Below are positions 12,616 to 48,102 of a stretch of 64,000 bases of DNA, in pieces. Position 1 is the first letter of the stretch; every line of letters begins with the position of its first letter. Under the pieces are notes generated by a model. That model was not told the origin of the DNA. It was given only the letters and a program-made list of their open reading frames with translations, and did no database searches. The translations under genes and the position numbers were made by a program. The stretch is from Bacilli bacterium (GTDB lineage Bacteria > Bacillota_I > Bacilli_A > RF39 > UBA660). The stretch lies in the NCBI GenBank assembly GCA_900769695.1, contig CAAGHO010000048.1, positions 4,698 through 68,697 of the forward strand, read 5' to 3'.

Positions 12616-14178
12616 ATGGTATTTCGTAAACCATATGCTTTTTTCATTAAAAACTTTAGAAAAATTCACTTTGTATTAATCATTTTATGTGGATTTATTT
12701 ATTCAAAAACAATCCAGTTAAGTGCATTTAATAAGAGTTTTATAACTTATTTAAGTTATGATCCATATTTAGAACCAATTTCTAAATACTTAAGTGTATT
12801 ATTATACTTAGCAGTTATTTTAACTATAACTGGATTCTTAATAATCTTGGTAGTTCTAAAAAGAAAAGATAAACCATGGAAATTATATTTAATACCAGTT
12901 ATAGAATATATAGCTCTTTTAATAATATATCTTTATTTAAATAATTTTTATAATACTTATGATGGTTCTTTTGTAACAACTACAATTAGAGCGTTAGATA
13001 ACTTTTTATCTATAGCGACAGTTCCTCAGTACATAGTATTTTTAATACTAATAATTAGAGTAATTGGACTTGATTTAAAGAACTTTAACTTTAGTGCTGA
13101 TGAAGAATTTCTGGATTTAAATCAAGATGATCGTGAAGAATTTGAAATTAGTATAAATTTTGATAAATATGCAATTAAAAGAAACTTTAAAATGGTATTA
13201 AGAAATATAAAGTATGTTTATCAGGAACATAAATTTATTTGTAATGTATTAATTACAATACTTTGTCTTATAACTGCATATAAAACATATTACTATTTTG
13301 GAGTTAGTCATAAAACAATAAAAGAAGATACGTTCTTTAATGTAAATAATTATTCTATGATGATAAATGAAAGTTTCTATACTGATAAAGATAAAAAAGG
13401 GAATATCTTGGAAAAAAACAGTGCTTTTATTGTCTTGAATGTAACTGTAGTTAATAATGGTATAAGTCGTAGTTTTGATGGTAATGATTTTCATGTAGTA
13501 AATGGTTCTAGTAATTATACCTATCAAGGAAATACTTATAGTGATGATTTTTCAGATATAGGTGGGAGTTTTCCTACTGGTAAAATGAAAAATGGAGAAA
13601 AAAGAAACTTTGCTTTAATCTTTAAAGTTGATAAAAAACTAGATTACAAGAAATTTGTATTATATTATCAAGAATATAGAGGTAGTGTTTCATATCTTAG
13701 AAAAATAAAATTAAACTTAAAAAATGTGGAAAAAATCAAAAATAATAATTCGATAAATATAGGGGAAGAATTAACTATAGAAAAACCAAATAATGATATA
13801 AGTAAATTTACTTTTGAAAAATTAGAATTTACAGATAATAAAAACTATAACATTGAAAGTTGTGATGCTAGTTCAAACTGTTCTATAACTACAAAAAATA
13901 TTAAAGCACCTGATAATAGTAAAATACTATATATAGAATTTACTTCACAAGATTATGAAGGAGTCCAGTTAGCAAAGTTTACTTCTAATTATGGTAAAAT
14001 AATATATACAAGTAGTGATGGTTTTTCTAAAGAAGTAGTTCCAACTAGTGTTTTAGCTAATAGGGATTACTTAGGAAAGATGTTATATATAAAAGTTCCA
14101 AATGAAATAGAAAGTGCTAAAACTATAGATTTTATATATACAGTGCGTAATAATAAGTATAGTTATAAAATAAGATAA
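12616..14178 (+). CDS. Membrane protein with N-terminal TM bundle and C-terminal extracellular beta-rich domains
   Basis: It has ~5 TM helices, then FIVLNVTVVNNGISRSFDGNDFHVVNG...GEKRNFALIFKV, which resembles Ig-like DUF4352-type domains. This was not verified by a search. Confidence 0.45.
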   Translation: MVFRKPYAFFIKNFRKIHFVLIILCGFIYSKTIQLSAFNKSFITYLSYDPYLEPISKYLSVLLYLAVILTITGFLIILVVLKRKDKPWKLYLIPVIEYIALLIIYLYLNNFYNTYDGSFVTTTIRALDNFLSIATVPQYIVFLILIIRVIGLDLKNFNFSADEEFLDLNQDDREEFEISINFDKYAIKRNFKMVLRNIKYVYQEHKFICNVLITILCLITAYKTYYYFGVSHKTIKEDTFFNVNNYSMMINESFYTDKDKKGNILEKNSAFIVLNVTVVNNGISRSFDGNDFHVVNGSSNYTYQGNTYSDDFSDIGGSFPTGKMKNGEKRNFALIFKVDKKLDYKKFVLYYQEYRGSVSYLRKIKLNLKNVEKIKNNNSINIGEELTIEKPNNDISKFTFEKLEFTDNKNYNIESCDASSNCSITTKNIKAPDNSKILYIEFTSQDYEGVQLAKFTSNYGKIIYTSSDGFSKEVVPTSVLANRDYLGKMLYIKVPNEIESAKTIDFIYTVRNNKYSYKIR

Positions 14179-14272: not shown

Positions 14273-16045
14273 ATGCAAAACAAAAAGAATGAAAAGTATA
14301 TAAAAATTGTAGTAACTGTTTTAATTATTGTGGCATTAGTGTGGTTTTTAGTGCTTAGTCCATTACTTAAATTTAGGAGTATGGAAAAAACATTACTTAA
14401 TGCTGCTAAAAGATATTTTGAAGTTAATGAAAACTTATTACCAACAGGTAATAGATTAAGAAAAATATCATTAGATACATTATATGATAAAGAATTTGTT
14501 AAAGAAGATTTACGTGCTCCTTATACAAATACTTTATGTAATAGTAGTGATAGTTGGGTAAAAGTATCTAAAAATAAAAAAGATGATACTAAATATGATT
14601 ATAATGTTTATTTAGAGTGTGGTGTATTTAGATCTAAGATAGATCACACAGGACCTACAGTAAAATTAAATGGTGAAGATGAGATAACTATGTATATAGG
14701 TGATAAATATAAAGAACAAGGTGTTTCTAGCATCACTGATGATACAGATGGTAATATTGATATCAAAAATGTTAAAATAGATTCTTCAAAAGTTAATACT
14801 AATAAAGTTGGTACTTATGAAGTTACATATGAAATAAGTGATAGTTTAGAAAATAAAACAATAAAGAAACGAATAGTAAAGGTTACTCAAACTTTAAATA
14901 ATATTCTAAAAAAAGGAACTGATAATAATACTTATTTAAAAATAGATGGAATACTTTTCACAGCAGTTGGTATTAATAGTGACAAAACAGTAAAAATTGT
15001 ATCTAGTAATGCTTTAGCAAGTCTAGATTATGATAGTGTAGATAAATGGCTTAATGAGTATTTTTATGAAAAATTAAGTGATAGTGCTAAATCATATATT
15101 GTTAAAAGTAAATGGTGCAGTGATAAGGTAAATGATCCTAATAATTATAGTAAATGCAAAAACTATTCTAAAGAAAAATATGTAGGATTATTATCAATAG
15201 GTGATTATAAGAATGCAAAAAGTGAAAATGATGTAGCCCTAAATAATGAGGATGCAGTTTGGACATATAGTAAAAAAGATAATAATAATGCTTGGATAAA
15301 TTCATATCGTGATGTTTTAGCTGGAATTTTTGAAGATTATAAAGCATCATCTTCAAAGAAAATTGTTGGTATAAAACCTGCTGTAAACATAAAAAAAGAT
15401 GCAGTTATAGTAAGCGGCGAAGGAACAAATGTTGATCCTTATATCCTAGAAGGTAACAATAAAAAAGCAAAACCCGGTGACAAATTATCAGAATCTGTAA
15501 CAGGATCTTATGTAAAATATTCAGGTTATAACTTTAGAGTGATTTCGAAAGAAGAAGATGGTACTGTAAAAGTAATTATGCTTGACCCACTTATTTCAAA
15601 TGATGGTGAATTTTATACAGAGTTTGATACTGTAAAAGAATTATATAATCCTAATAAAAAAACAAATATTGCATATAAGATAGCAAATAAAGCTAGTGAA
15701 TTTATAAAGATTGATTATTTTGATACAAAACAAATTGAAGTTAAACAATATACAAATGTTGTTTCTTACGATAACAAACTTGCTACTAATAAATATAAAG
15801 CTAAACTTTCTTTAGCGAGTCTATTTGATTTATATAGTACAACTAAAACTGATGGAGTAAGTACATGGTATAAAGAAAGTTCTAATAAAGAAAATTATAT
15901 TAATTCAGCATCCATTGGTACAGTGGCTATGGAATTTGATAAAGAAAGAGTTGCTGGTATAAAGTTAGTTGGATATTTAAATAAAGATGTTGTTATAAAA
16001 ACAGGAGAAGGAACTTCAATAAATCCATACACATTAACAAAATAG
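14273..16045 (+). CDS. Membrane-anchored surface protein with an Ig-like domain and two 'W..S...(I/V)KP' + 'GEGTxxxPY' modules
   Basis: It has an N-terminal TM anchor and the segment HTGPTVKLNGEDEITMYIGDKYKEQGVSS...VGTYEVTYEISD, a bacterial Ig-like, DUF5011-type pattern. The repeats SGEGTNVDPYILEG and TGEGTSINPYTLTK are present. The N-terminal region is paralogous to 39783..41045. Confidence 0.6.
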   Translation: MQNKKNEKYIKIVVTVLIIVALVWFLVLSPLLKFRSMEKTLLNAAKRYFEVNENLLPTGNRLRKISLDTLYDKEFVKEDLRAPYTNTLCNSSDSWVKVSKNKKDDTKYDYNVYLECGVFRSKIDHTGPTVKLNGEDEITMYIGDKYKEQGVSSITDDTDGNIDIKNVKIDSSKVNTNKVGTYEVTYEISDSLENKTIKKRIVKVTQTLNNILKKGTDNNTYLKIDGILFTAVGINSDKTVKIVSSNALASLDYDSVDKWLNEYFYEKLSDSAKSYIVKSKWCSDKVNDPNNYSKCKNYSKEKYVGLLSIGDYKNAKSENDVALNNEDAVWTYSKKDNNNAWINSYRDVLAGIFEDYKASSSKKIVGIKPAVNIKKDAVIVSGEGTNVDPYILEGNNKKAKPGDKLSESVTGSYVKYSGYNFRVISKEEDGTVKVIMLDPLISNDGEFYTEFDTVKELYNPNKKTNIAYKIANKASEFIKIDYFDTKQIEVKQYTNVVSYDNKLATNKYKAKLSLASLFDLYSTTKTDGVSTWYKESSNKENYINSASIGTVAMEFDKERVAGIKLVGYLNKDVVIKTGEGTSINPYTLTK

Positions 16046-16060
16046 AGGTAAGTAAGTATT

Positions 16061-16840
16061 ATGAAAAAAGACGATGTAATTAAAAAAAATTCTTGGCGAA
16101 TGCTCCTTGTTGTAGTATTATTAATATTGAGTAGTGTACTTATAATTAAGGGTCAGTATCCATATTACAAAATTGAAGATAAAACAAAGGCTTTAAAATC
16201 TTTTAAAGGAGTAGAAGATGAAAAAGCATTAGGATGGTTAAGAGTACAAGGAACAAATATAGATTTTCCAATTGTTTATTATTATGATACAGATGTAACA
16301 GATTCTACTAATGAGTTGGGATGGACTTATTCAAATAGTAATAAATTAGAAGAGAAAACAACAATATTTTCACATAATATTTTAAATGTTTCTTCAAGGC
16401 CTCTTATTACTGATAAAAATCATAAAAGATTTGAGCAACTAATGAGTTTTATATATACAGATTTTGTAAAGAAAAACAAATATATTGAGTATACAACTGA
16501 TAATAATAATTATTTGTTTAAAATCTATGCTATATCATTTCAAAAAGAGGAAAATTTGAGTTATAAGAAAACTGATTTAGCAAATAAGGAAAAGCAAAAA
16601 TATATTGATAATGCAATAAAGAATAGCTATTTCAAGTTCAATACAGATGTTAAAAATAGTGATAAGTTAATTACTCTAGTTACTTGTACAAGATTTTTTG
16701 GAAATACAACAGATTATTCATTTGTTGTTGATGCAAGATTAGTAAGAAAAAATGAACTTGTTACTAATTATGGTGTAGAAGAAACTAAGAATTATAAAAA
16801 GATTAAGGATATTATGAAAGGAGATGCAGATAATGTATAA
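16061..16840 (+). CDS. srtB: Class B sortase
   Basis: It has an N-terminal TM anchor, then LGWLRVQGTNIDFPIVY, TTIFSHN (catalytic His), LITLVTCT (TLxTC Cys) and VVDARL (Arg). The overall layout matches S. aureus SrtB. Confidence 0.8.
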   Translation: MKKDDVIKKNSWRMLLVVVLLILSSVLIIKGQYPYYKIEDKTKALKSFKGVEDEKALGWLRVQGTNIDFPIVYYYDTDVTDSTNELGWTYSNSNKLEEKTTIFSHNILNVSSRPLITDKNHKRFEQLMSFIYTDFVKKNKYIEYTTDNNNYLFKIYAISFQKEENLSYKKTDLANKEKQKYIDNAIKNSYFKFNTDVKNSDKLITLVTCTRFFGNTTDYSFVVDARLVRKNELVTNYGVEETKNYKKIKDIMKGDADNV

Positions 16841-19820
16841 ATATAAGAAAAGGGTTGGAATTAGTTTTATATTAGCTATGGCAATTGTTTTAGGGGTAAC
16901 TCCAAATGCAAATGCTCTATCAAATCAAAAATCTGCTAATAAAGCATGTGAAAATGCTTTATTTTCAGGGAATATGTTAACTGCGAATGAAAATGATGCA
17001 TCTATCAAAATATATGCCAAAGAAGGTAGATGGAATGTAAAGTATTATATATCAAAAGGTTCAACAGAATTTGATTACAGTGTAGTATTAGCTAATTCTA
17101 ATAATAAAAATGCAGAAAAACCAGAATCTCTTGAATATGTAGGTGGAAGTCAAATTTCAATTCCTGTTGGTAGAGGTAATGCAATAGTTTTAATAGCTGA
17201 GCCTCAAGCATCAGAAGATAAACATGTACTTGATGCAACAGGAACGGCAGTTTTAAAAGCACCTAATGGTCAAAGTAGCGTTACATGTAAGGCAGGAAAT
17301 GTTTCTACAGATGACAATTATTCATTAAAAATAACTGGTACTGCTGCATATATTTCAAACAGCTTTGCTTCAACATCTGTTGTTAGTTCAAGAAATGTCA
17401 GTAATGATGCAGCAGGAGAATGCGAAGCTATGAAAAACGCATGGTATGATAAAGATAAACAAGTAAATTATTTAGGAACAGAAGATGCTAAAAATAGATA
17501 TAATGCTCAAATGAAAACTAGCTTTCCTTATTGCTACTCAAGTTATAATTCATCTTTTGAAGTAACTGCAAGCACCATAAAAAAAGTAAGACAAGCATCT
17601 TTAGAAGCATATAAAGCATATGTTGAATTCCAACAAAAACAACAAGACAATAGCAAGTATACAGCAGCGATAGATGAGATTCAAAAAGAAGGATATAAAG
17701 AATTAAAATATTCTGATAAAGGAATGTCAGTAGGAACTCTTTCTTGTAAAAAAAATCAATCTCTAGCTGCAACAGAAAAATACTATACTACCCATCAAGA
17801 TGTACAAAATGATGCTTGCCAAGTTGATTGTGTTGAACAATTACAAGTTACATATGATCCTCCTCAAGCTATAAAAGGTGGTATGTGTTTCCAATACAAA
17901 GTAACTGTAAGAAGTAAAGTTTCTTGTAAAACAGAACTTAGAAATGAAATAAAGTGGCCATCTCCTAAAGATTCATGTGATTATGCTCCAATTTGTAGTG
18001 GTAATAGTCAAGAAACTCAAGCAGGACCTAGTGAGAAATTTGATTCATGTATAAATAGCTGTGATGGAGGAACTTATTCTCAAAGTTGTATTAACAAATG
18101 TTATAATAAAGTTTATGGAACAAGTAAAAAGACTAAATCAAGTGTTAAGAAAACTTCATCAAATACTACTAATACATCAAGCGTTGTTAAATTAGCAAAT
18201 AACAATGATCCTTACTATAATATAACGTCATGCAAAAACAATAAAGAAGTTGCTGATAATATAGATTATTGTGCTAATCAATTTTATCAATTAAAACAAA
18301 AAGAACCTCTAGGAACGTATGAAGAAGAAGATAAAGGTTGGTATCAATATGTATGGAAGCCGGACTCTAGTGTAAGTCCAGCTACTGATAATACAGGTAG
18401 TTATAGTACAAGTGACAGAAGTTGGATTGAGGCAATCAAAAGATCATCACCATATTATTTTAGAGATTTAGCAACAGCTAAGAAAACAATTCAATCATTT
18501 TATGGAGTTGGTAATGGTTATAATGGATATGGTACGGCAAGAAGATATATTATTGATGATGGTGGTATAAAACGACAAAGAACTAATACCTATTGGTGTA
18601 ATGAAGTATGTGGATTTAAACGTTTAAGTGGAACCAGCGATTGTGTAAGCACTAGCCAACAATTAGAAGACAAATATGTAAAAGAATTTGAAAACATATA
18701 TAATCAATTATCAGAATGTACTTCAAAAGCAGTATGTAAAAGTGGAGTAGTATCATCATTTAATATTGGTGTTGACTATGATACTAAAGATGCTACAACA
18801 AACAAAGAAAACTCTGGTAATAATAGTTGGAATGCAACTAATAAATCTGGAGTTAATGCTGATATGGATAACGTTGGACAAGGCGATAAAAAAATGTTTA
18901 TTCCTATCATCGTAGAAGATGATCAAAGAAAACAAGTTATTCCTGCTGACTTAGAGCCATCAAATACTAATAATGGTATTAATGGTACATGCTATGGTAA
19001 AAATAATGATAAGTATTGGCAACATTATAAAACTACTATTACTTTTCCAGGTACTTGGATTAATTTAAAATCAGCTAAAAGATTATATAAAGAGCCAACA
19101 TCTACTGAAAAAGATTACATGAGAGAAAAGGAAAATTATTATTGTGTTGGCTATGATTATAAACCAGTTAATGAAAAATGGTGGGACTGGAAAATAAATG
19201 GTGTTGGCAATATAAATACTATTAAAGTAGAAAAACCAGATAATATTAAGGCTAAAATAAAAGACTTTGGTAAGTATAATTGGTCTTTAAACTTAAATTG
19301 TTTCTATGGATTAAGTAATGAAGTAACTAAATGTGTTGGTAAAAATTGTAATCCTACATGTACTGGTGGAGAATGTGATACTTCAATAAAGAACGTTAAA
19401 ATGAGAACAGTTGATCAACAAGATTTATTTGCTGGTAGAACTGGGGATAAAGTTGGATTCAACTGGACAAGTGCAGCTCAAGATAAAGTTGCATTAAATG
19501 CTAAAAATTCTAATGCAAAAACATATGGTATAGATCCTGGTGAATATGCAAAAAAACTTCAAACAGAAGCTAAAGGTAATTCAGAAACTGCTTATAGTGG
19601 AAATGCTGATTATTCACTACACCTAACAAAAGAAAACATAAAAGAATTAAGAAAATACGTTAAGAATAATGGTTACACCTCTTATCAAGGTAATGGAGGT
19701 AATTCATATAAAGAAGTATCTGGAATAAATCTATATTATTATACAAGTGGAATTTTAAATAAATCCGAATATACTACTAACTTCAAAAGAAATACAAATC
19801 TTGGAGTAAATAATGATTAA
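16833..19820 (+). CDS. Large secreted Cys-rich protein, unknown function
   Basis: The signal peptide reads KKRVGISFILAMAIVLGVTPNANA/LS. I count ~29 Cys, often in CxxxC, CxxC or Cx3-7C pairs. An AAAGGAG RBS at 16817-16823 favours the ATG at 16833, which overlaps the srtB stop. There is no C-terminal sorting signal. Confidence 0.65.
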   Translation: MYKYKKRVGISFILAMAIVLGVTPNANALSNQKSANKACENALFSGNMLTANENDASIKIYAKEGRWNVKYYISKGSTEFDYSVVLANSNNKNAEKPESLEYVGGSQISIPVGRGNAIVLIAEPQASEDKHVLDATGTAVLKAPNGQSSVTCKAGNVSTDDNYSLKITGTAAYISNSFASTSVVSSRNVSNDAAGECEAMKNAWYDKDKQVNYLGTEDAKNRYNAQMKTSFPYCYSSYNSSFEVTASTIKKVRQASLEAYKAYVEFQQKQQDNSKYTAAIDEIQKEGYKELKYSDKGMSVGTLSCKKNQSLAATEKYYTTHQDVQNDACQVDCVEQLQVTYDPPQAIKGGMCFQYKVTVRSKVSCKTELRNEIKWPSPKDSCDYAPICSGNSQETQAGPSEKFDSCINSCDGGTYSQSCINKCYNKVYGTSKKTKSSVKKTSSNTTNTSSVVKLANNNDPYYNITSCKNNKEVADNIDYCANQFYQLKQKEPLGTYEEEDKGWYQYVWKPDSSVSPATDNTGSYSTSDRSWIEAIKRSSPYYFRDLATAKKTIQSFYGVGNGYNGYGTARRYIIDDGGIKRQRTNTYWCNEVCGFKRLSGTSDCVSTSQQLEDKYVKEFENIYNQLSECTSKAVCKSGVVSSFNIGVDYDTKDATTNKENSGNNSWNATNKSGVNADMDNVGQGDKKMFIPIIVEDDQRKQVIPADLEPSNTNNGINGTCYGKNNDKYWQHYKTTITFPGTWINLKSAKRLYKEPTSTEKDYMREKENYYCVGYDYKPVNEKWWDWKINGVGNINTIKVEKPDNIKAKIKDFGKYNWSLNLNCFYGLSNEVTKCVGKNCNPTCTGGECDTSIKNVKMRTVDQQDLFAGRTGDKVGFNWTSAAQDKVALNAKNSNAKTYGIDPGEYAKKLQTEAKGNSETAYSGNADYSLHLTKENIKELRKYVKNNGYTSYQGNGGNSYKEVSGINLYYYTSGILNKSEYTTNFKRNTNLGVNND

Positions 19821-19834
19821 GGTGGTGTTAATTA

Positions 19835-20281
19835 ATGAATAAAGCATATCTATTGGTAGGTACAATAGTATTAAGTATTTTAGCTCTAGCTGCAATTAAC
19901 TTAATTAGTAATTATTCTTCAGGTAATGAGTTAGATTATTACTTATTAAAAGAAACAACTCAAGCATCTATGATGGATTCATTAGATACGGCGTATTGGA
20001 CAGAAAGAGGAGTATTTAGAATCGACAAGGAGAAGTTTGTTGAAAACTTCGTCCTTCGATTCGCAGCTAATGTTGATAATTCAAGAGAGTATGATATTAA
20101 ATTTTACGATATAAATGAAGTGCCACCTAAGGTTACTATTCAGGTAGATTCTCTAAATTCAAGTTTAACTGTTGATGGTAAATCTAATGTTAATATATCT
20201 ACTAGACTTGAAGGAATTTTAGAGACAAATAATAAAAAAGATCCTATATTGACTACTAAATATTTAAAAGGTAATTATTAG
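19835..20281 (+). CDS. Small protein with an N-terminal TM helix (possible minor pilin or assembly protein)
   Basis: 148 aa beginning MNKAYLLVGTIVLSILALAAINL. The assignment rests on its position immediately upstream of the CpaB-like gene. Confidence 0.4.
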   Translation: MNKAYLLVGTIVLSILALAAINLISNYSSGNELDYYLLKETTQASMMDSLDTAYWTERGVFRIDKEKFVENFVLRFAANVDNSREYDIKFYDINEVPPKVTIQVDSLNSSLTVDGKSNVNISTRLEGILETNNKKDPILTTKYLKGNY

Positions 20282-20301
20282 GATAAGAAAGGAAGAATAA
20301 A

Positions 20302-21105
20302 ATGGGAAGTATTAGTGTAACAATAAAAAGAATTTTATCAAATAAAAATACAGTTACTGTACTTGGTGTAATAGCAGCTGTATTAGTATTGTATTTTGGT
20401 TATAATTCAAGAGTAAAAAAGGCGATTACTCCAATTAATGTTCCTTATGCAAAAGAAACAATTAAACCTGGTACACAAATAACAGAGGATATGATTGGAT
20501 ATAAAAATGTATCAAGTGAGACTGTTAATGATGGACTTGCTTATACAAATGTTAATGATGTAAAAAATAAATATGCAAATGCTGATAGTGTAATACCACA
20601 AGGAAGTTTATTTTATAAAAGATCAGTTGTAGAAAAAAGCCAATTACCTGATGAAATCATTTATGATTATCCTGATGGATATGTATTATATTATATGAAT
20701 GTAGATACAGAATCAACTTATGGTAATGCAATTTATCCAGGAAACTATATTGATATTTATTTAAAAGCACAAAATGCGCAAGCTGAAGGTGAAAATATAG
20801 TTACAAGTGACAAAATTATGGTTGGTAAATTGTTAGAAAATGTAAAAGTTATTGCTGTAAATGATGCAAATGGTAATAATGTATTTGCTGATGTTGATGA
20901 AAATAGAACTCCAGCAACATTAATCTTTGCAGTACCTCAAGAATATTATATTCTACTTAATAAAGCTAAATTCTTAAGATCAGTTTCAACCACATTGATT
21001 CCAGTACCAACAGCTGAAAGTTTAAAAGATGATCCAGGAGATTTAAAATTAAGTAGTGAAGAGTTAAAGAACTATATCAACAGTATTACTGTTTGGACAG
21101 AATAA
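20302..21105 (+). CDS. Flp pilus assembly protein CpaB/RcpC-like
   Basis: An N-terminal TM helix is followed by VPYAKETIKPGTQITEDMIGYKNV (SAF-like), then a beta-rich domain. It lies directly upstream of the TadA-like ATPase, as in tad/cpa loci. Confidence 0.5.
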   Translation: MGSISVTIKRILSNKNTVTVLGVIAAVLVLYFGYNSRVKKAITPINVPYAKETIKPGTQITEDMIGYKNVSSETVNDGLAYTNVNDVKNKYANADSVIPQGSLFYKRSVVEKSQLPDEIIYDYPDGYVLYYMNVDTESTYGNAIYPGNYIDIYLKAQNAQAEGENIVTSDKIMVGKLLENVKVIAVNDANGNNVFADVDENRTPATLIFAVPQEYYILLNKAKFLRSVSTTLIPVPTAESLKDDPGDLKLSSEELKNYINSITVWTE

Positions 21106-21147
21106 AAAGAAGAATAAAAAATAAAAAGAAAAAAGGGATGTGGTTAG

Positions 21148-22464
21148 ATGAACGAAAGTATATTTGACAAATTAGATTTTGGACCATTAAAACCATTATT
21201 GGATGATGATGATATTACTGATATTTCATTTTGTAATAAGGGGCAAATTTGGGTTCGTTCTCTAACTCAAGGTTCCAAAAGAATAGAAGTAGAAGGTGTT
21301 ACTCAAGAGTTCATGGAAAAATTAGCGTTTCAGTGTTCAAACGTCATGGGAACAACGTTTAATAATGCTAAACCATTTTTGGATGCTGAATCTGCTGAAT
21401 TGCGTTTTAACTTTGTTCATGAATCTATTGCTACTAATGGTATAGCTTGCGTTATTCGTAAAACACCTGCTAAGATTCGTTTGGAAAAACAAAAATTATT
21501 ACAGGAAGATTATTTTACAGCTGACATTCATGATATTTTAATAAAATGCGTCGAAGGTCACTGTAATATTTTAGTTGCCGGTGAAACTGGTTCAGGTAAA
21601 ACTGAATTTGTAAAATATCTAGCAAGTCATACAAAACAAGATGAAAAAATAATTACGATTGAAGATACACTAGAACTTCACTTAGACAGAATTTTTCCTG
21701 AAAGGGATATTGTTGCGATGAAGACAAATAATGTTGCAAGCTATTCTGATGTTTTAGTTACTTGTATGCGTCAGAATCCTAAATGGATTTTACTTTCGGA
21801 AGTTCGTAGTGCTGAAGCTGTTAGTGCTGTGCGTAACTCAATATCTTCGGGACATAATATTTTATCAACAATCCATGCTGATAAGGCAAGTGCTATTCCA
21901 TATCGTTTATATAGTTTGATGGAAACAGATTTGGAAGTTGATCAATTTTTAAATACAATTTATCGTTATATTCAATTAGGTGTACATATTAAGGCATATT
22001 ACAGTAAACAGTACGGTAAATTTCACCGTGAACTTGATGAAGTTGTTGAATTTTATGTAGATGATGATAATAAACCCCAATCTCATATAATTTATCAAAA
22101 ATTATTTGGAAAAGCACCAATTACTCATAGGCCAAGCAAACATTTAATTGAATATTTAGAAAATCAAAATATAGATATTTCTTCACTTGTTGAACATATG
22201 GCAAAAGAATCAGGTGAAAGTGTAGCAGAGCAAAACGCTGAAGCTTTGAGTAAAACTAGAAATTCAACTACTCAGGTTTCAAATTTAAATCAAAATCGAG
22301 TAAATACATCAACTGTTGTAAATAATCCTACACAAGTTCAAACTGTTCCAGTTCAAAATATACCGAATCAACAGGTAAAACAAGTTGTAGTAAATAATGT
22401 TCAAAATACTACACAAATTCCAAGACCACAGGTTGTAACTCTACCACCTGTAGGAAGTAATTAA
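21148..22464 (+). CDS. tadA: Type II/IV secretion ATPase, TadA/CpaF (VirB11-like) family, with a Q/N/V-rich C-terminal tail
   Basis: Walker A is VAGETGSGKTEF. Also present are ITIEDTLEL (Asp box), LLSEVRSAEA (Walker B region) and ILSTIHAD (His box). The C-terminal ~80 aa are low-complexity NQ/V repeats. Confidence 0.85.
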   Translation: MNESIFDKLDFGPLKPLLDDDDITDISFCNKGQIWVRSLTQGSKRIEVEGVTQEFMEKLAFQCSNVMGTTFNNAKPFLDAESAELRFNFVHESIATNGIACVIRKTPAKIRLEKQKLLQEDYFTADIHDILIKCVEGHCNILVAGETGSGKTEFVKYLASHTKQDEKIITIEDTLELHLDRIFPERDIVAMKTNNVASYSDVLVTCMRQNPKWILLSEVRSAEAVSAVRNSISSGHNILSTIHADKASAIPYRLYSLMETDLEVDQFLNTIYRYIQLGVHIKAYYSKQYGKFHRELDEVVEFYVDDDNKPQSHIIYQKLFGKAPITHRPSKHLIEYLENQNIDISSLVEHMAKESGESVAEQNAEALSKTRNSTTQVSNLNQNRVNTSTVVNNPTQVQTVPVQNIPNQQVKQVVVNNVQNTTQIPRPQVVTLPPVGSN

Positions 22465-22477
22465 GGGGTGATGTAAA

Positions 22478-23371
22478 GTGGTACTATTTCTATTATTATT
22501 AATTGCGTTTATTATCTTAATAAGTCGTAATTATAGTGGTAATAACTTAGGAAAATATGTTATTCAACAAGCATCAAACATATATAGTAAATATGCTCCA
22601 TATTCATTTAAAGTTGTACGTGAAAAAACAAAGCAGTTAGGTAAAGAATTTACAGTTAAAGACTACTTGATTCAGATAGCAATTTTTTCAGTTGCTACTG
22701 GTGTTATTACATACATGTATTTCTATAGTGTTACAATAACAATTATATATGTATGTATAGTAATTGCTTTTATCCCATACTTATCTTATTTAAGATGTAA
22801 AAAAGTTTATAGTGAGTTTATTTTTGAACAAATTCAAACATATACATCAAATACTATTATGGAATTTGCAACTACTCAGTCATTTGTAAAATCACTTGAA
22901 GGAGTTAGAGATTCTGGAATATTAGAAGATCCTGTAAAATCAGATGTTGAGCATATGATAGAACTTGCATATCAAAATGGTACGATTGATGAATCTGTCA
23001 ATTATATGTCAAATTTGTATCCATATTTTATAGTTAAAAACATGCACCAATTATTTTTACAAATAACAAAAGAAGGTGCTAGAAACTCTATGGATAGTTT
23101 GGAAAATATGCAGCTTGACATTGATATGCTTGTTGAAAGTGTTTATCGTGACCGTATTGATAGAGCAACATTCCATAAACAATTTCTACAATTTGGAATT
23201 ATGCTTTATTTAATGGTAATGCTAGTTCAATATTTGCTTGGAACAGAAGCATATTTAAAACTCTTAGAATCTTGGGTAATACAAGGGTTGCTGCATGGCG
23301 TTATTATAATTAATAGTATGTTTCTTCTTAAAGGTGAAAAATATTATTATGAGAATGTAGGTGCTGAATAA
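22478..23371 (+). CDS. TadB-like inner-membrane platform protein (T2SS F-type)
   Basis: GTG start with an AGGGGTGA RBS. The topology is TM, TM pair, ~130-aa cytoplasmic domain, then C-terminal TM helices, and the gene lies right after the TadA-like ATPase. Confidence 0.55.
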   Translation: MVLFLLLLIAFIILISRNYSGNNLGKYVIQQASNIYSKYAPYSFKVVREKTKQLGKEFTVKDYLIQIAIFSVATGVITYMYFYSVTITIIYVCIVIAFIPYLSYLRCKKVYSEFIFEQIQTYTSNTIMEFATTQSFVKSLEGVRDSGILEDPVKSDVEHMIELAYQNGTIDESVNYMSNLYPYFIVKNMHQLFLQITKEGARNSMDSLENMQLDIDMLVESVYRDRIDRATFHKQFLQFGIMLYLMVMLVQYLLGTEAYLKLLESWVIQGLLHGVIIINSMFLLKGEKYYYENVGAE

Positions 23372-24153
23372 TGGAAATAATTATTGTATGTGGCCTTATT
23401 GTTTTTATCTGTTTTTATAATAAAACAATAGATGGTAAAAAGTTTATTGCTGATAATGAAAAGTTTTTTCAACTATTAAGAGAAAAAGATTATGATTTTT
23501 TAGTTTTTTCTAAGTATGGTGACGATGTAGATTGCGATGAATTATTCAAAAAAAGAGTAATGAATGGATTGTTATTTGGATTATTATTCTTTATGATATT
23601 TTTAAGTAATTTAAGTCTTATAAACGTAGTCCTAACATTATTAATAGCGTTTGGAGTATTTAAATTACCATATATGCAATTAAAAAATTTCTATAAAGCT
23701 CACCTTCATGAGATAGATTTATTATTACCTTATTATCTAAAAGGACTAGAAATCTTAATTCAACATTATACTGTTCCAGTTGCAATAGGTAAAAGTATTG
23801 ATGATGCCCCTGATATATTTAAACCGGGACTTAGAAAGCTTGTAGATAGAATTAATGCAGGTGATTCAACAGTTGATCCATATATGGAGTTTTCTAATAC
23901 TTATCCTGTAAGAGATTCAATGAGAATGATGAGACTTTTATATCGTTTAGGTTTAGGTTCACAAGAGCGTAAACAAGAACGTTTAATGATGTTTTCAAGA
24001 AGTGTTTCTAACTTACAAAATAAAGCAAGAGAAGTTAAATACAAAGAAAGACTTAACTATATGGAAAGTCAAACTATGAAAATGCTTGTTGTAACAGGTG
24101 TAGCCGTTATGGGAATCATTTTAATTTCCATGATTGGTATGTTTAGTATGTAA
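23371..24153 (+). CDS. TadC-like inner-membrane platform protein
   Basis: Its start overlaps the upstream stop (TAATG). It has the same topology class as the preceding gene and is the second of the usual TadB/TadC pair. Confidence 0.55.
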   Translation: MEIIIVCGLIVFICFYNKTIDGKKFIADNEKFFQLLREKDYDFLVFSKYGDDVDCDELFKKRVMNGLLFGLLFFMIFLSNLSLINVVLTLLIAFGVFKLPYMQLKNFYKAHLHEIDLLLPYYLKGLEILIQHYTVPVAIGKSIDDAPDIFKPGLRKLVDRINAGDSTVDPYMEFSNTYPVRDSMRMMRLLYRLGLGSQERKQERLMMFSRSVSNLQNKAREVKYKERLNYMESQTMKMLVVTGVAVMGIILISMIGMFSM

Positions 24154-24169
24154 AGTTTGAAGTTTAATA

Positions 24170-24197
24170 TTGTAATTTATGCTAAAATTGGTATAAT
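24170..24197 (+). promoter_or_regulatory. Candidate extended -10 promoter for the Flp-like pilin gene
   Basis: TTGTAA (24170-24175), a 16-nt spacer, then TGgTATAAT (-10 at 24192-24197). A GGGTG RBS lies 10 nt before the ATG at 24237. Confidence 0.4.
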
Positions 24198-24236
24198 AAA
24201 AATGTATATATATAATATGAAAGGGTGTGTTAATAT

Positions 24237-24392
24237 ATGAAAGCAGCAACAGGAGAATTAAATTTAACAGTTATTACATTAATTGCTATTGCAGCAGTTA
24301 TAGGATTTTTCTGGCTAATGTGGCCTAATATTACAAATTCATTGAATGATCAATGGAACAGTATTAGTGGTGGACAAACAACAGCAAAATAG
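24237..24392 (+). CDS. Flp-type small pilin candidate (51 aa, below the ORF-track cutoff)
   Basis: I translated it by hand: MKAATGELNLTVITLIAIAAVIGFFWLMWPNITNSLNDQWNSISGGQTTAK*. It has a short basic leader ending in Gly, then a ~20-aa hydrophobic helix. It has its own RBS and promoter and lies between the TadC-like and pseudopilin-like genes. Confidence 0.55.
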   Translation: MKAATGELNLTVITLIAIAAVIGFFWLMWPNITNSLNDQWNSISGGQTTAK

Positions 24393-24424
24393 TTGATATA
24401 AATAAAAATTGAGAGGTGTTTTAA

Positions 24425-24883
24425 ATGCGTGATTCTATAGGAGGTGTATTTAATCTTACTTTTATAGCAATATTTATGCTAGTAGTAAGTGGTTATTTAG
24501 CTTTTTCTGTTAGTTACAATAAGGCTTATAAGGTTAAAAATAAAATAATTTCTACCTTAGAACAGTATGAAGGATATAATAACAAATCCAAAGAAGTAAT
24601 TGAAGATTACATGAATAGAATTGGTTATAACTCAAAAAATGCTTCTCCTAGATTAGAGTCATCATATGATTGTTGTACAAAAAGAGGATACTGTATTAGT
24701 TGGGTTCCAGATGATAGCGCTAATTCAGGATTACCAAAAGGATATTATAAAGTTGTAACTTCTGTTAACATTGATGTTCCAATATTTAATAAATTTTTGC
24801 CATATATGACATTTTTTCAAACTACTGGTGATACTATGACTATTTACGCTTCTGGTAATCCAACAACAGCTAGTTGTAGTTAA
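24425..24883 (+). CDS. Pseudopilin / TadE-like minor pilin candidate
   Basis: It begins MRDSIGGVFNLTFIAIFMLVVSGYLAF, a short leader ending in GG followed by an xxNLT hydrophobic helix that echoes GELNLTVITLIAIA of the Flp-like ORF. Length is 152 aa with 4 Cys. Confidence 0.4.
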   Translation: MRDSIGGVFNLTFIAIFMLVVSGYLAFSVSYNKAYKVKNKIISTLEQYEGYNNKSKEVIEDYMNRIGYNSKNASPRLESSYDCCTKRGYCISWVPDDSANSGLPKGYYKVVTSVNIDVPIFNKFLPYMTFFQTTGDTMTIYASGNPTTASCS

Positions 24884-24909
24884 TCATAAAATATAGGTTG
24901 GAGGTTAAG

Positions 24910-25908
24910 ATGAACGTAATAGTATCTAATAAGAAACAAGAGCAACTTAACTCATTAGATATTGATGTCATTAAAAGTATTAATGGTATATATGAAACTG
25001 AAGAATTAGTTTCAATGTTTAAAAATTTTTTCTACGAAAAAATGATAATAGATATTACAGCCATTAATAACTATAATGATATTAGTAATATTGAAAGATT
25101 AGCTATGGGATTAGGCTCTGAAAAATTAATTTTATTGCTAACTGATGAATTATGTACATCAGTTTACTTGTCAAAATTAATAGATGTTGGTATCTATAAT
25201 TTTACTAATAATATTAATGCAATAAAAAGACTAATTGCTAGACCTAATACATATGAGGATGTAAAAAAGTTACAAATTTTAAATACTGTTTCAGAAGAAA
25301 TAAAAGAACATGCAGAAACAACAACTTCAAGAAATAAAAACTCTTTAAAAGTTTTGGGTATAAAAAATGTTACTGAAAATGCTGGAGCTACGACTTTTAC
25401 ATATATGTTGTTAAAAACTTTAAAGAAACATTTTGGTAGTAATGCTTATGCTATTGAAGTAGATAAAAATGATTTTAGATATTTTAATGAAAAAAATATG
25501 ATATCAGTCGGATCTGAAAATTTAAAATCTAAACTTGATAGTTTAAATAATGCTCAAATAATTTTAATTGATCTTAATAAATCAAATAATGAGTCATTAT
25601 GTCAAGAAGTAATCTATTTAATAGAACCTAGTACAATTATGTTAAACAAACTTATAAGTACAAATCGTGGGGTATTTGAAAAACTTAAAGATAAAAAGAT
25701 TGTTCTTAACAAAAGTTGTTTATCAAATAAAGATGTTACAGAATTTGAATATGAGGCAAATGTTAAGGTTTTCTATAACATTCCTGCTTTAGATGATCAT
25801 GTTAATAATAACGTTTTAGAGGATTTTCTTTCAAGATTAAGTATTTTTGATGCAACAGCAGCAAGAAAAGAAGACGGAAATAAAATTTTCGGAATATTTG
25901 GACATTAA
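24910..25908 (+). CDS. TadZ/CpaE-like protein (receiver-like N-domain plus degenerate ParA/MinD-type ATPase domain)
   Basis: A GGAGG RBS precedes the ATG at 24910. The N-terminal ~110 aa look like a CheY-like fold. After that, VLGIKNVTENAGATTFTYMLLKTL sits where the deviant Walker A occurs, but the P-loop Lys is missing. Confidence 0.45.
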   Translation: MNVIVSNKKQEQLNSLDIDVIKSINGIYETEELVSMFKNFFYEKMIIDITAINNYNDISNIERLAMGLGSEKLILLLTDELCTSVYLSKLIDVGIYNFTNNINAIKRLIARPNTYEDVKKLQILNTVSEEIKEHAETTTSRNKNSLKVLGIKNVTENAGATTFTYMLLKTLKKHFGSNAYAIEVDKNDFRYFNEKNMISVGSENLKSKLDSLNNAQIILIDLNKSNNESLCQEVIYLIEPSTIMLNKLISTNRGVFEKLKDKKIVLNKSCLSNKDVTEFEYEANVKVFYNIPALDDHVNNNVLEDFLSRLSIFDATAARKEDGNKIFGIFGH

Positions 25909-27496: not shown

Positions 27497-27503
27497 TGGA
27501 TAT

Positions 27504-29162: not shown

Positions 29163-29504
29163 ATGTTAGATTTAGTACAATTTTTGGTAACAGATAAATG
29201 TCAAGGGCTTGGTCCTATAATAGTAGTAATTAAAAATGTATTTAAGTTAATTCAATTTGCTATTCCAATAGCTTTAGTATTATTTGGTACTATAGATTTA
29301 GGAAAGGCAGTTATATCAAGTGATGAAAAAGAGGTAAAAAAAGCTCAAGGTACATTAATCAAACGTTGTATTTATGCTGTTGCAATTTTCTTTATCATTA
29401 CATTAGTTACATTAATTATGAATATTGTTGCTAAAGGTGTAGCAGACGATAGCGCTAATGGTGCTGATACTTCTAGTTGGGCAACTTGCTGGAATTCAAA
29501 ATAG
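29163..29504 (+). CDS. VirB2/TrbC-like small membrane (pilin-like) conjugal-transfer protein
   Basis: 113 aa with two TM helices flanking GTIDLGKAVISSDEKEVKKAQGTLIKRCIYAVAIFF. It is a paralogue of the next gene and has the layout of pilin-like T4SS subunits of Firmicutes and Mycoplasma ICEs. Confidence 0.5.
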   Translation: MLDLVQFLVTDKCQGLGPIIVVIKNVFKLIQFAIPIALVLFGTIDLGKAVISSDEKEVKKAQGTLIKRCIYAVAIFFIITLVTLIMNIVAKGVADDSANGADTSSWATCWNSK

Positions 29505-29521
29505 TTAATATAAGTGAGTAG

Positions 29522-29562
29522 AAAATAAATAGTAATTGTAATTGCTATTTATTTTTTTTTTT
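29522..29562 (+). terminator. Intra-operon hairpin plus T11 run between the two VirB2-like genes
   Basis: The stem is aaaataaatag/ctatttatttt with a ~12-nt loop, followed by a T-run ending at 29562. TGcTATAAT (29562-29570) follows immediately. Confidence 0.5.
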
Positions 29563-29608
29563 GCTATAATTAACTTGGATTATTTTATGACAAGGGTGGA
29601 TAGTGTCT

Positions 29609-30040
29609 ATGAGAAAAATATTGACAATTATATATATTATGATTATTACTATATCCTTAGTATTACCTATTAATATACAGGCTGCTAATATTAAGATATC
29701 TGATAATAATTATGTTCAAATACTAGATGGAACAATAGATTGTACAAGCCAAGAAACAGGTATACTTGGTAGTGTTCAAGATAAAGAATCTGTTGCTTGG
29801 TTATTACAACAGATTCTAAATTATATTAAGATACTAGGACCGTCTCTTGCAATTGCTTTAGGAACTATTGATTTTGTAAAGGCAATAGTGGTTTCAGATG
29901 AAAAAAGTATGAAAGAGACACAAAAGAAATTTGTGAATAGATTAATTGCAGCTTTTTTATTGTTTTTTGTACCTTTAATAGTTCAAGTGTTATTGAATTT
30001 ATTTGGTTTTACAACAAATATTGCTTGTGGATTAAAATAG
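29609..30040 (+). CDS. VirB2/TrbC-like protein, paralogue with a signal peptide and N-terminal extension
   Basis: A GGGTGGA RBS favours the ATG at 29609. The signal peptide reads ...LPINIQA/AN. The segment GTIDFVKAIVVSDEKSMKETQKKFVNRLIAAFLLFF aligns with 29163..29504. Confidence 0.5.
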   Translation: MRKILTIIYIMIITISLVLPINIQAANIKISDNNYVQILDGTIDCTSQETGILGSVQDKESVAWLLQQILNYIKILGPSLAIALGTIDFVKAIVVSDEKSMKETQKKFVNRLIAAFLLFFVPLIVQVLLNLFGFTTNIACGLK

Positions 30041-32311: not shown

Positions 32312-32635
32312 GTGAATAATACATATTTAATTCCAGCTAATACGAAGAGCGGAAAGTTAATTTTGGGAATGTTTAAACCATTTGACTTAATATTGTTTGG
32401 AAGTGGGATAGCCATGACATTATTGTTATTAGTTATTCTACCAATGGAATCATTGATAGTTACAGTAATTGTTATACTTCCAGCATTGATTACAGGTTTT
32501 TTGGTTATTCCTGTTCCAAATTACCATAATATGTTAAATGTCATTGGTGAGTTAGTTGAATTTATAACAACTCAAAGAAATTATGAATGGAAAGGTTGGT
32601 GTGTAGGATATGAAAAAGGCAAGCGAAAAAAGTAG
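32312..32635 (+). CDS. PrgI/VirB3-like small membrane protein
   Basis: 107 aa (GTG start) with two TM helices. It lies immediately upstream of and overlaps VirB4, as in Gram-positive T4SS operons. Confidence 0.5.
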   Translation: MNNTYLIPANTKSGKLILGMFKPFDLILFGSGIAMTLLLLVILPMESLIVTVIVILPALITGFLVIPVPNYHNMLNVIGELVEFITTQRNYEWKGWCVGYEKGKRKK

Positions 32636-33161
32636 ATCAACTGAGGATTGGCTTCCAGTGAGGAGTATTCAAAATAACTGCATTGTAACTTATGGAAATA
32701 ATAAAGTCAGCGGAGTAAAAATAACTCCAAGGAATATATTTATTCTTGATCAAAGTTCTCAAGATAATGTATTAATTAGCTTGAAAAACTTTTATAATAT
32801 GATAGATTTTGAATTTTGGTTAGTTGTGGCAGATAGGCCAGTAGATATATCTGTTTATATGTCTCAACTTCAATTATTACTTAATAATACTCAAAGTGCA
32901 GCTATTAGAAAGTTAATTCTTCAAGATTTAGATAAAGGTAATACATTTATTAACAATAATATTGTTGATACAGAATATTACATTTTATTTAAAGAAAAAG
33001 ATGATAATATGCTTGAGAAGAAAATTAGATTATTAATTAATGGTTTGGCAACTTGTGGATTAAATGCTTCTCAAGTTACTAATGATGATTTAAGAATTGT
33101 TTTAGATAATTTCTTAAATGGGGGTCAAACAACAGAATTTGGAACGGTGATGCCAGTATGA
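32610..33161 (+). CDS. VirB4-family ATPase, N-terminal domain encoded as a separate ORF
   Basis: EDWLPVRSIQNNCIVTYGNNKVSGVKITPRNIFILDQSSQDNVLISLKNFYNMIDFEFWLVV matches the N-terminal region of Gram-positive VirB4 (ConE/TcpF/Orf16-type) proteins. It ends in ATGA, overlapping the next start. Confidence 0.6.
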   Translation: MKKASEKSRSTEDWLPVRSIQNNCIVTYGNNKVSGVKITPRNIFILDQSSQDNVLISLKNFYNMIDFEFWLVVADRPVDISVYMSQLQLLLNNTQSAAIRKLILQDLDKGNTFINNNIVDTEYYILFKEKDDNMLEKKIRLLINGLATCGLNASQVTNDDLRIVLDNFLNGGQTTEFGTVMPV

Positions 33162-34948: not shown

Positions 34949-34974
34949 TTAGATTCTAGAAGTAGGTGAGGTTC

Positions 34975-36825: not shown

Positions 36826-36836
36826 GAGGTGAAAAT

Positions 36837-37595: not shown

Positions 37596-37637
37596 CATTT
37601 AATATATAATATATGTTGAGAGAAAGAAGTGATCTTT

Positions 37638-48051: not shown

Positions 48052-48102
48052 AAAAGCAATAAATAATAGAATTTAATTAATAAAGAAAAGAGGTTAAGAA
48101 AT

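Follow-up and report, generated by a model that had tools for sequence, protein, structure and literature searches.

We studied a locus of eleven genes (positions 14273 to 25908) within a 64-kb stretch of DNA from a Bacilli bacterium; this whole stretch is called the window in the following. The locus is the front half of a chromosomal gene array of ~27 kb for a conjugation-type type IV secretion system (T4SS), which is common to many uncultured RF39-type gut bacteria. The best reading of the locus is that it encodes the pilus or pseudopilus part of a domesticated conjugation-type machine. That is, we consider it probable (roughly 60%) that the region represents the filament-assembly half of a composite, chromosomally fixed machine for cell contact or transfer, which combines a Tad-like system with a T4SS across RF39-type gut Bacilli. 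The Tad-like locus almost certainly works together with the adjoining T4SS. In contrast, a preliminary description of the region had presented it as a self-contained pilus locus and missed that it is contiguous with T4SS genes, i.e., those for two VirB2-like proteins, VirB6, VirB4, a hydrolase and VirD4.

We denote the genes of the locus by g (g1 to g11), and genes upstream and downstream of it in the window by u and d, respectively. The window has a GC content of ~26% and carries nearly all of its genes on the + strand. The locus itself comprises 11 open reading frames (ORFs), all on the + strand and separated by gaps of -17 to +91 nt; its limits agree exactly with the preliminary description, most gene calls of which are upheld. 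No terminator was predicted on the + strand between 10.5 and 30.2 kb, and a promoter scan gave a signal no higher than the shuffled expectation. For two genes, a start codon slightly further downstream is the better choice. Based on Shine-Dalgarno spacing, g3 most likely starts at ATG 16833 (995 aa), while g11 most likely starts at ATG 24910, since the resulting 332-aa form is matched exactly in a protein collection. For g3, g7, g8, g9, g10 and g11, no Pfam or NCBIfam family was found at usable thresholds.

The ATPase g6 (21148..22464, + strand) belongs to the CpaF/TadA clade of secretion ATPases. It matches T2SSE (1.4e-27), and its Walker A, Walker B and His box are invariant. The closest solved structures are archaeal FlaI (73 bits) and CpaF (71 bits), both with the N-domain covered, while VirB11 structures reach 53-55 bits over part of the protein only. 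Among NCBIfam models, VirB11 scores best (113 bits), next to TadA (TIGR03819; 110 bits vs. a cutoff of 373) and ComGA (82 bits), with PilB/GspE lower still. Homologs of g6 are metagenomic and number in the thousands; the best 120 are all at least 72% identical. The C-terminal tail (~22200-22464) is variable, rich in Q, N, V and P and probably disordered, and ortholog lengths range from 421 to 749 aa.

These scores also bear on the idea of a competence (Com-type) pseudopilus for DNA uptake. Such a system would explain a type IV filament-like ATPase with platform proteins in Bacilli, and a reduced genome might scavenge DNA. However, ComGA stays at 82 bits compared to 110-113 for TadA and VirB11, PilB/GspE are lower, CpaB- and TadZ-type partners are not Com components, the locus gave no ComGB or ComGC family match, and its pilin lacks the G/F-xxx-E motif. 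The profile search thus went against a competence assignment, which supports the preliminary description in this respect, and we rejected this explanation as extremely unlikely.

Regarding the other parts of the Tad core that had been proposed, the CpaB-like and the TadZ-like protein are recovered like the CpaF-clade ATPase, while the TadB/C-like assignment of g7 and g8 is based on hidden Markov model (HMM) links to plasmid proteins only. The CpaB/RcpC-like g5 (20302..21105, + strand) combines a transmembrane (TM) segment, a SAF domain and an RcpC domain. Here, the RcpC/CpaB family PF16976 just passes its cutoff (29.2 vs. 28.8 bits) and TIGR03177 stays below its own (4e-11; 42.7 vs. 71 bits), while the g5 family HMM identifies CpaB-like proteins of plasmids at 1e-38 to 1e-39.

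For the platform proteins, we built family HMMs from the RF39 orthologs. The TadB-like polytopic protein g7 (22478..23371, + strand) shows no direct Pfam or PDB match, and a combined profile of g7 and its plasmid counterparts retrieves nothing meaningful from the PDB either. Its HMM, however, finds proteins of conjugative plasmids, namely in Priestia (1.7e-17), pHT73 (a 315-aa protein, 9e-19), Parageobacillus (3.4e-9) and pLS20 (2e-3). The counterparts in Priestia and Parageobacillus are annotated as 'T2SS F family'; the latter passes the Pfam T2SSF cutoff (26.6 vs. 25.2) and the former just misses it (24.2). An AlphaFold 2 (AF2) model of g7 based on database homologs was poor (mean predicted local distance difference test score, pLDDT, of 52.6) and was not used for a fold search. 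The TadC-like second platform protein g8 (23371..24153, + strand) likewise has no direct T2SSF, Pfam or PDB match, and its HMM is linked only to the collinear second plasmid protein (Priestia 6e-19, pHT73 2e-14, Parageobacillus 2.5e-9, pLS20 gene 39 1.3e-5). A direct comparison of g7 and g8 by hhalign yields a probability of 11%.

The last gene of the locus, g11 (24910..25908, + strand), encodes a TadZ-like protein, in which a receiver-like N-domain is joined to a domain of ParA/MinD fold. While no match was found at the sequence level (Pfam, PDB profile search), its AF2 model (pLDDT 83.1) shows two alpha/beta domains. Foldseek relates this model to ParA (3ea0), BcsQ and MinD/FlhG as well as, across both domains, to 3fkq (E 1.5e-4, probability 0.99), which we take to be the structure of the two-domain TadZ of Eubacterium rectale. 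The Walker A motif is degenerate (KNVTEHAGATT). A TadZ-like protein with a degenerate P-loop, as initially proposed, is therefore what fold and motif indicate. Finally, g4 (19835..20281, + strand) is a DUF5411 protein (PF17424, 1.8e-44) that has a TM helix at its N-terminus and a small domain outside of the cytoplasm, and it may act as a minor pilin or an assembly factor. Overall, the module derives from a Tad/type IVc system and operates in a similar manner, but it lacks two defining features of such systems, namely the Flp motif and a linked A24 peptidase.

Next, we consider the T4SS genes that follow the locus, all on the + strand. Two VirB2-like T4SS pilin paralogs are encoded by d3 and d4 (29163..30040), of which d4 passes the PF18895 cutoff (29.4 vs. 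26.6 bits) and d3 matches weakly (E 2e-3); in relatives, both are kept after g11. The 736-aa d5 (30060..32270) is a VirB6/TrbL-like channel protein (PF19597 TrbL_4, 30.1 bits vs. a cutoff of 27). In the following group (d6, d7, d8; 32312..34948), the small d6 has two TM segments and a VirB3-like position, while d7 and d8 (32610-34948) together form a split VirB4. These two ORFs overlap by 4 nt, and the split is kept in relatives. The ATPase part d8 matches NF045975, i.e., the VirB4 of Mycoplasma integrative and conjugative elements (ICEs), with 354 bits, which is below the equivalog cutoff, and CD1110-family VirB4 with 172 bits; the N-terminal part d7 reaches 63 bits for NF045975. Orthologs of this VirB4 region (d6-d8) are 80-90% identical across relatives. 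Further downstream (d9, d10; 34966..37595) we find a SpoIID-like cell-wall hydrolase in the VirB1 role (d9; PF08486, 27.3 bits vs. a cutoff of 23) and a membrane-anchored protein of 252 aa (d10), both conserved in relatives. The VirD4-type coupling protein d11 (37629..39764) passes NF045973 conju_CD1115 (313.9 bits vs. a cutoff of 250) and matches PF02534 (1.4e-55). Together, VirB4, VirD4, the VirB6-like channel and the wall hydrolase are the set of a Gram-positive conjugative (MPF_FATA-like) T4SS.

To place the array, we scanned one genome per species, which revealed relatives in 333 genomes, and surveyed the best 80 by tblastn. All of these 80 are uncultured gut metagenome-assembled genomes, labeled Bacilli, Tenericutes, Mollicutes, 'Mycoplasma sp. 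CAG:877', 'Clostridium sp. CAG:417' or Candidatus Faecimonas. RF39 is a Mollicutes-related lineage of Bacilli, and the host presumably belongs to this reduced-genome group rather than to a Clostridium-like one. Ca. Faecimonas corresponds to the GTDB genus CAG-877 of the order RF39, with a genome of ~1.4 Mb and 28% GC (PMC8035907). On essentially every contig that is long enough, the gene order u2-g1-g2-g3-g4-g5-g6-g7-g8-g9-g10-g11-d3-d4-d5-d6-d7-VirB4 is found on one strand. Such an order conservation in 80 species-level genomes is far beyond chance. The linkage of the sortase g2 and the Cys-rich g3 to the Tad-like genes, which the preliminary description had pointed out, shows the same order in every relative with a sufficiently long contig.

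Within the array, all median gaps are between -26 and +158 nt, and the median distance from g11 to d3 is 57 nt. In the window, this distance is 3.2 kb and holds two genes (26000-29045) for a 498-aa polytopic membrane protein and an FAD amine-oxidase-like protein, which interrupt the array. Since these two genes are present only in the window and its closest relatives, the 3.2-kb gap is a lineage-specific insertion. In a second survey, we compared VirD4 against metagenome contigs and found the order g11...VirB4-hydrolase-d10-VirD4-d12, followed by rhodanese, VTT, RmuC and TrpRS genes, on tens of contigs from human, ruminant, sloth and squirrel guts. At the upstream flank, a SpoU methylase recurs wherever the relatives' flank reaches that far.

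An active ICE or an integrated plasmid that carries the pilus operon as cargo would be compatible with a full conjugation-type T4SS set including VirD4, and the closest characterized homologs are indeed located on plasmids and Mycoplasma ICEs. However, the flanks named above recur in many species wherever contigs reach them, the array has a GC content like its surroundings, and megablast of the locus against plasmids and phages provided no near-identical match. Furthermore, the window holds no relaxase, integrase or transposase families, no tRNA genes and no Rfam families at gathering threshold, and the island is not surrounded by att-like direct repeats other than chance AT-rich matches. Given the conserved flanks and the lack of a relaxase, integrase, transposase, tRNA or att repeat, we conclude that the array is vertically inherited and chromosomal rather than an active mobile element. 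We thus rejected the ICE explanation, which is very unlikely on this evidence.

Relatives of the module are also found in conjugative plasmids. Using tblastn of g6 and g5 against plasmids, we identified four groups, namely B. subtilis pLS20, the pHT73/pAW63 family of the B. cereus group, one Priestia and one Parageobacillus plasmid. The common plasmid module consists of a large surface protein, DUF5411, a CpaB-like protein, a ParA-type ATPase, T2SSE, two polytopic proteins, a small TM protein and DUF4320, and it adjoins T4SS genes of differing flavors. The respective module regions span 9446-13334 in L081 (pLS20), 17542-25405 in L084 (pHT73) and 11483-17631 in L165. DUF5411 takes the g4-like position in all four groups (gene 36 in pLS20), and g6 shares 30-35% identity with gene 37 of pLS20 and the relatives of that gene. 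Compared to the plasmids, the RF39 version has its TadZ-like gene last and carries u2, g1, the sortase and g3 in addition.

In pLS20, the succession of DUF5411 (gene 36), ATPase (37), two membrane proteins and DUF4320 (40) along with a 47-aa single-TM protein is collinear with the RF39 module, and CD1115-family VirD4, VirB6 and VirB4 come after it. In contrast to RF39, the setting in pLS20 is a mobile plasmid that encodes a MobP relaxase and a thioester protein as adhesin, but no CpaB-like, TadZ-like, sortase or g3 homolog. The transfer regions of pAW63/pXO2/pHT73, Parageobacillus and Priestia hold a fuller module that includes a CpaB-like protein, an AAA_31 ParA-type ATPase and two T2SSF(-like) proteins. 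For Parageobacillus, the order of Tad-like module, small pilin-like protein, TrbL, VirB4 and hydrolase equals that of the RF39 array, while its plasmid differs in having a MobQ relaxase. The pHT73-type, Parageobacillus and Priestia modules all differ from RF39 in being plasmid-borne with relaxases and in having SLH-domain proteins where RF39 has a sortase and the Cys-rich g3. In addition, their ParA-like gene precedes the ATPase and shows no detectable sequence similarity to g11. Our literature search found no paper that describes the plasmid module as Tad-like, nor any on a T4SS or pili of RF39; for DUF4320, nothing relevant was found.

A further explanation is a stand-alone Tad/Flp adhesion pilus with a sortase-anchored or -processed component, next to which the T4SS is an unrelated neighbor. 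It accounts for the Tad-like core components as well as for the sortase and the large secreted proteins, which are translationally coupled in the operon and conserved in relatives, and in this window the 3.2-kb insertion does part the two halves. But almost every relative continues with the T4SS genes ~57 nt beyond g11, both halves are enclosed by the paralogous pair g1 and d12, and in at least four plasmid lineages the module co-occurs with T4SS genes. Furthermore, no sorting signal is present in the cluster proteins and the pilin g9 is without the Flp motif. We therefore consider a stand-alone pilus quite improbable.

The putative filament subunits are encoded by g9 and g10. With 51 aa, g9 (24237..24392, + strand) is pilin-sized, with a short charged leader, a Gly and ~22 hydrophobic residues, and its ORF is preceded by a good Shine-Dalgarno sequence. 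The N-terminus MKAA[TS]GELNLTVITLIAIAAVIGFFW is nearly invariant in 67 species, where the first 29 residues hardly vary. The 152-aa g10 (24425..24883, + strand) is minor-pilin-like, with a TM helix after its MRDAxGG leader, and shares with g9 the pattern G-x-x-N-L-T-x-I after the short charged leader. It resembles DUF4320 proteins, to which its HMM shows weak links (Priestia 2.6e-3, pLS20 5e-2). In the preliminary description, both had been named as a small Flp-like pilin and a pseudopilin-like protein. For g9, this holds with regard to size, leader and hydrophobic helix, but not to sequence family, since a match to Flp_Fap (PF04964) is missing along with the G/xxxxEY signature. For g10, a pilin-like N-terminus is seen, while neither a TadE match nor the Flp G/xxxxEY signature was found and the DUF4320 links are weak.

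Several points weigh against our best reading. In no organism has this module been observed to form a filament, and the assignments of g8, g9 and g10 draw on position, topology and weak profile links only. The motif of g9 reads G-ELNLTV, i.e., it has neither the Glu+5 nor the Tyr+6 of the Flp G/xxxxEY signature. As already stated in the preliminary description, no Peptidase_A24 (TadV/CpaA-type) is encoded by window ORFs of at least 90 aa, and the sortase g2 has no identifiable substrate. The study of the pLS20 family lists gene 37 as 'putative VirB11', genes 36 and 38-41 as unknown and pilus components as absent, and it proposes no pilus (PMC8557374), and a 2025 review on T4SSs describes those of Gram-positive bacteria as lacking both pili and VirB11 (PMC12857230). 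Moreover, a relaxase could lie elsewhere in the genome. Finally, the flanking housekeeping genes are syntenic as well, such that the adjacency in RF39 alone is no proof of coupling; the coupling argument hence rests on the co-occurrence in plasmids. The lack of a peptidase is not peculiar to the RF39 locus, since the annotations around the module in the examined plasmid regions list none either.

Some of these points fit a machine without any filament, in which g6 is the VirB11 equivalent that energizes the T4SS and g4, g5 and g7-g11 are membrane or scaffold subunits, specific to this system, of an expanded Gram-positive T4SS channel. VirB11 provides the top NCBIfam score of g6 (113 bits), the plasmid homolog of this ATPase is treated as VirB11 in the literature (PMC8557374, PMC11730352), and g9 and g10 come without canonical class III signal features as well as without a peptidase in the window. 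Among solved structures, however, g6 with its covered N-domain is nearer to CpaF/FlaI than to VirB11. It also travels with CpaB-like, TadZ-like and T2SSF-related proteins, which are partners of type IV filaments and not of T4SSs, while g9 equals a Flp pilin in size and topology and has the leader-Gly motif in common with g10. On balance, a machine without filament appears unlikely to us.

We also studied the surface proteins that accompany the module. The array opens with u2 (12616..14178, + strand), a 520-aa membrane protein with a single TM segment, whose cytoplasmic N-terminus is invariant (RKPYAFxIKNF) and which matches DUF4352 weakly. It is collinear in 70/80 relatives at 34-58% identity with a median gap to g1 of 10 nt. 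The surface protein g1 (14273..16045, + strand) is anchored to the membrane N-terminally and contains one Ig-like domain (PF16403 Bact_surface_Ig-like, 3.8e-15), in agreement with the Ig-domain surface protein reported before. The last array gene, d12 (39783..41045, + strand), encodes a membrane-anchored surface protein of 420 aa. At the profile level, g1 and d12 are paralogs (reciprocal E-values of 1e-34 and 1e-37) that bracket the whole array. Both start with an N-terminal TM segment and a ~110-aa domain and have a ~190-aa module ending in GxGTxxxPYx[IL]; g1 has two such modules, each with this ending, and the Ig-like domain beyond what is found in d12. Since the first gene of the locus and the last one of the T4SS half are paralogous, the two halves of the array are tied together.

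Between g1 and g3, and translationally coupled to them, lies g2 (16061..16840, + strand), a sortase-fold cysteine transpeptidase with an N-terminal TM anchor. It matches the Sortase family PF04203 (1.4e-9; 38.2 bits vs. a cutoff of 26.6), and the catalytic His (SH), Cys (xTCTR) and Arg (xDAR) are kept throughout an alignment of 76 orthologs. The best NCBIfam model is that of class B (TIGR03064), but with 67.9 bits below its equivalog cutoff of 153.75. Fold, triad and best model thus support the class B sortase of the preliminary description, while the score makes it a divergent, class B-like one. In plasmids, the nearest proteins are ordinary srtB of Clostridia, Listeria and Niallia with 26-30% identity (<31%).

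A substrate of the sortase was sought in two ways. No window ORF of at least 60 aa combines a sorting motif with a TM segment and a basic tail (NPxTN/LPxTG type), and no LPXTG/NPxTN-like conserved motif column was found in the 12 cluster families scanned. A C-terminal sorting signal is also absent from g1; an 'LPTG' near its N-terminus was dropped as a candidate, since L-P-T-G is not LPxTG. As no protein of the cluster or the window carries a sorting signal, the 'sortase-processed fibre' proposed before has no identified substrate. We also rejected g2 as a stand-in prepilin peptidase on grounds of topology, since its sortase domain would be outside of the membrane while the leader would be cytoplasmic.

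Directly downstream and overlapping the end of g2, g3 (16833..19820, + strand) encodes a secreted orphan protein of 995 aa with a signal-peptide-like N-terminus. It contains 29 Cys (2.9%) compared to 0.9% in neighboring proteins, with ~20 invariant Cys columns, which supports the Cys-rich secreted protein of about this length in the preliminary description. No Pfam, PDB or plasmid similarity was found for g3, and it matches only 531 clusters (50% identity) among 1.84 billion proteins. The surface parts evolve fast, i.e., identities among relatives are 34-54% for g1, 23-50% for g3 and ~30-55% for d4 and d5, compared to 64-92% for motor and channel proteins. The sortase and g3 are absent from the four plasmid versions examined, where g3 has no homologs at all, and are therefore RF39-specific additions. 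They may serve the surface attachment or the processing of an adhesin.

Based on these assignments, we propose the following mechanism, all steps of which are derived from sequence. The TadZ-like g11 would position the hexameric ATPase g6 on the g7/g8 platform. There, g6 may power the assembly of g9 subunits, joined by g10 and g4 as minor components, into a short pilus or pseudopilus, which would exit via a CpaB-like collar and a wall opening cut by the SpoIID-like hydrolase. The fast-evolving g1, d12 and g3 are putative adhesins or receptor-binding parts, one of which the sortase may attach or process via a non-canonical signal. Once the filament makes or stabilizes the contact to a target cell, the VirB4/VirB6/VirD4 channel could move a substrate, which may be DNA (as in the relaxase-poor transfer of the Mycoplasma type) or protein. 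In plasmids, the module would serve mating-pair formation, while in RF39 it may have been domesticated for a host function.

A more far-reaching version, which we put forward tentatively and with limited credence, is that the Tad-type filament, the sortase with the Cys-rich protein and the relaxase-less T4SS with its VirB2-like pilins form one apparatus in RF39 that is devoted to obligate cell-cell interaction and not to plasmid conjugation. Equally tentatively, its role might be attachment to, or exchange with, bacteria or host cells, or a distributive exchange of chromosomal DNA. If true, this would parallel the essential T4SS of Patescibacteria, and the 'VirB11' modules of pLS20- and pAW63-type plasmids would be unrecognized conjugative pili of Gram-positive bacteria, for which mating-pair formation is described as largely elusive (PMC11730352).

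Patescibacteria have a chromosomal, mostly relaxase-less MPF_FATA-like T4SS with VirB2-like pilins (PMC12102498), and the missing relaxase, the fixed location and the VirB2-like pilins of RF39 closely parallel it. Both groups are monoderm, uncultured and of reduced genome size, have a lineage-wide chromosomal T4SS that is mostly without a linked relaxase, and show PF18895-type VirB2-like pilin paralogs beside virB4 (PMC12102498). On the other hand, Patescibacteria represent another phylum, no Tad-like module or sortase is reported in their clusters, and essentiality of the T4SS for epibiosis is known for Patescibacteria only (PMC12102498).

Other known systems share single parts with the array. 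Canonical Tad/Flp systems (Aggregatibacter tad, Caulobacter cpa, Bifidobacterium breve tad, E. rectale TadZ 3fkq) are alike in ATPase clade, paired platform proteins, CpaB/RcpC, TadZ architecture and a pilin of ~50 aa. In contrast, the RF39 pilin is without G/xxxxEY or Flp_Fap, there is no TadE/F Pfam match and no TadV in the window, the sequence scores are all under equivalog cutoffs, and the module is fused to a T4SS and has DUF5411, DUF4320, sortase and Cys-rich partners. The T4SS of Mycoplasma ICEs provides the best NCBIfam model for the RF39 VirB4 (Mbov_0397-family) and a weak match for d3 (MMCAP2_0566 family), while RF39 differs by its VirB4 in two pieces, a score below the equivalog cutoff and an array that is not on a mobile element; we know of no Tad-like genes in Mycoplasma ICEs. 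Type IV pili that assist conjugation are found in Gram-negative bacteria with the R64 thin pilus and PAPI-1. Here, the functional logic is alike in that mating-pair formation is aided by a type IV filament whose genes accompany those of a T4SS. However, these pili are of class IVb and not Tad-like, envelope type and organisms differ, and the parallel is no more than an analogy. Miller et al. (2022) flagged an operon of CpaF, PilC/GspF and DUF5411 in Roseburia, Ruminococcus and Eubacterium as putative new membrane machinery (PMC9523054). Like the RF39 array, this operon of gut Firmicutes links DUF5411 to CpaF and a T2SSF-type protein; in contrast, its partner is an internalin-like protein and no T4SS or sortase is reported, including in the supplements (PMC9523054).

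The locus contradicts the textbook generalization on Gram-positive T4SSs. At least 80 species-level genomes, and possibly 333, have a Tad-type filament module physically joined to the T4SS of a monoderm. In well-studied conjugative plasmids, this module went unrecognized, such that the question is testable in pLS20 and B. subtilis. For RF39, an abundant and uncultured gut lineage with genomes of ~1.4 Mb, the relaxase-less T4SS and the fast-evolving surface proteins hint at a contact-dependent lifestyle, which could guide its cultivation. The conserved sortase without a recognizable substrate and the orphan Cys-rich g3 are biochemical puzzles of their own.

Beside the array, we observed some further genes in the window. 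Between the SpoU methylase and u2, a 415-aa ORF (u1, 11303-12550) is present in the closest relatives only and shows a weak Spore_III_AB match (E 0.005). Four adjacent genes at 57902-63766 look like a possible anti-phage defense island; they encode an RVT_1 reverse transcriptase (59125-59850), a 661-aa protein without family, a Zeta-toxin-like P-loop kinase and a DUF2201 metallopeptidase/VWA protein. A three-gene cluster at 46082-49185 encodes one zinc-ribbon, one TPM-domain and one SPFH/Band-7 protein, the last with a zinc ribbon at its C-terminus.

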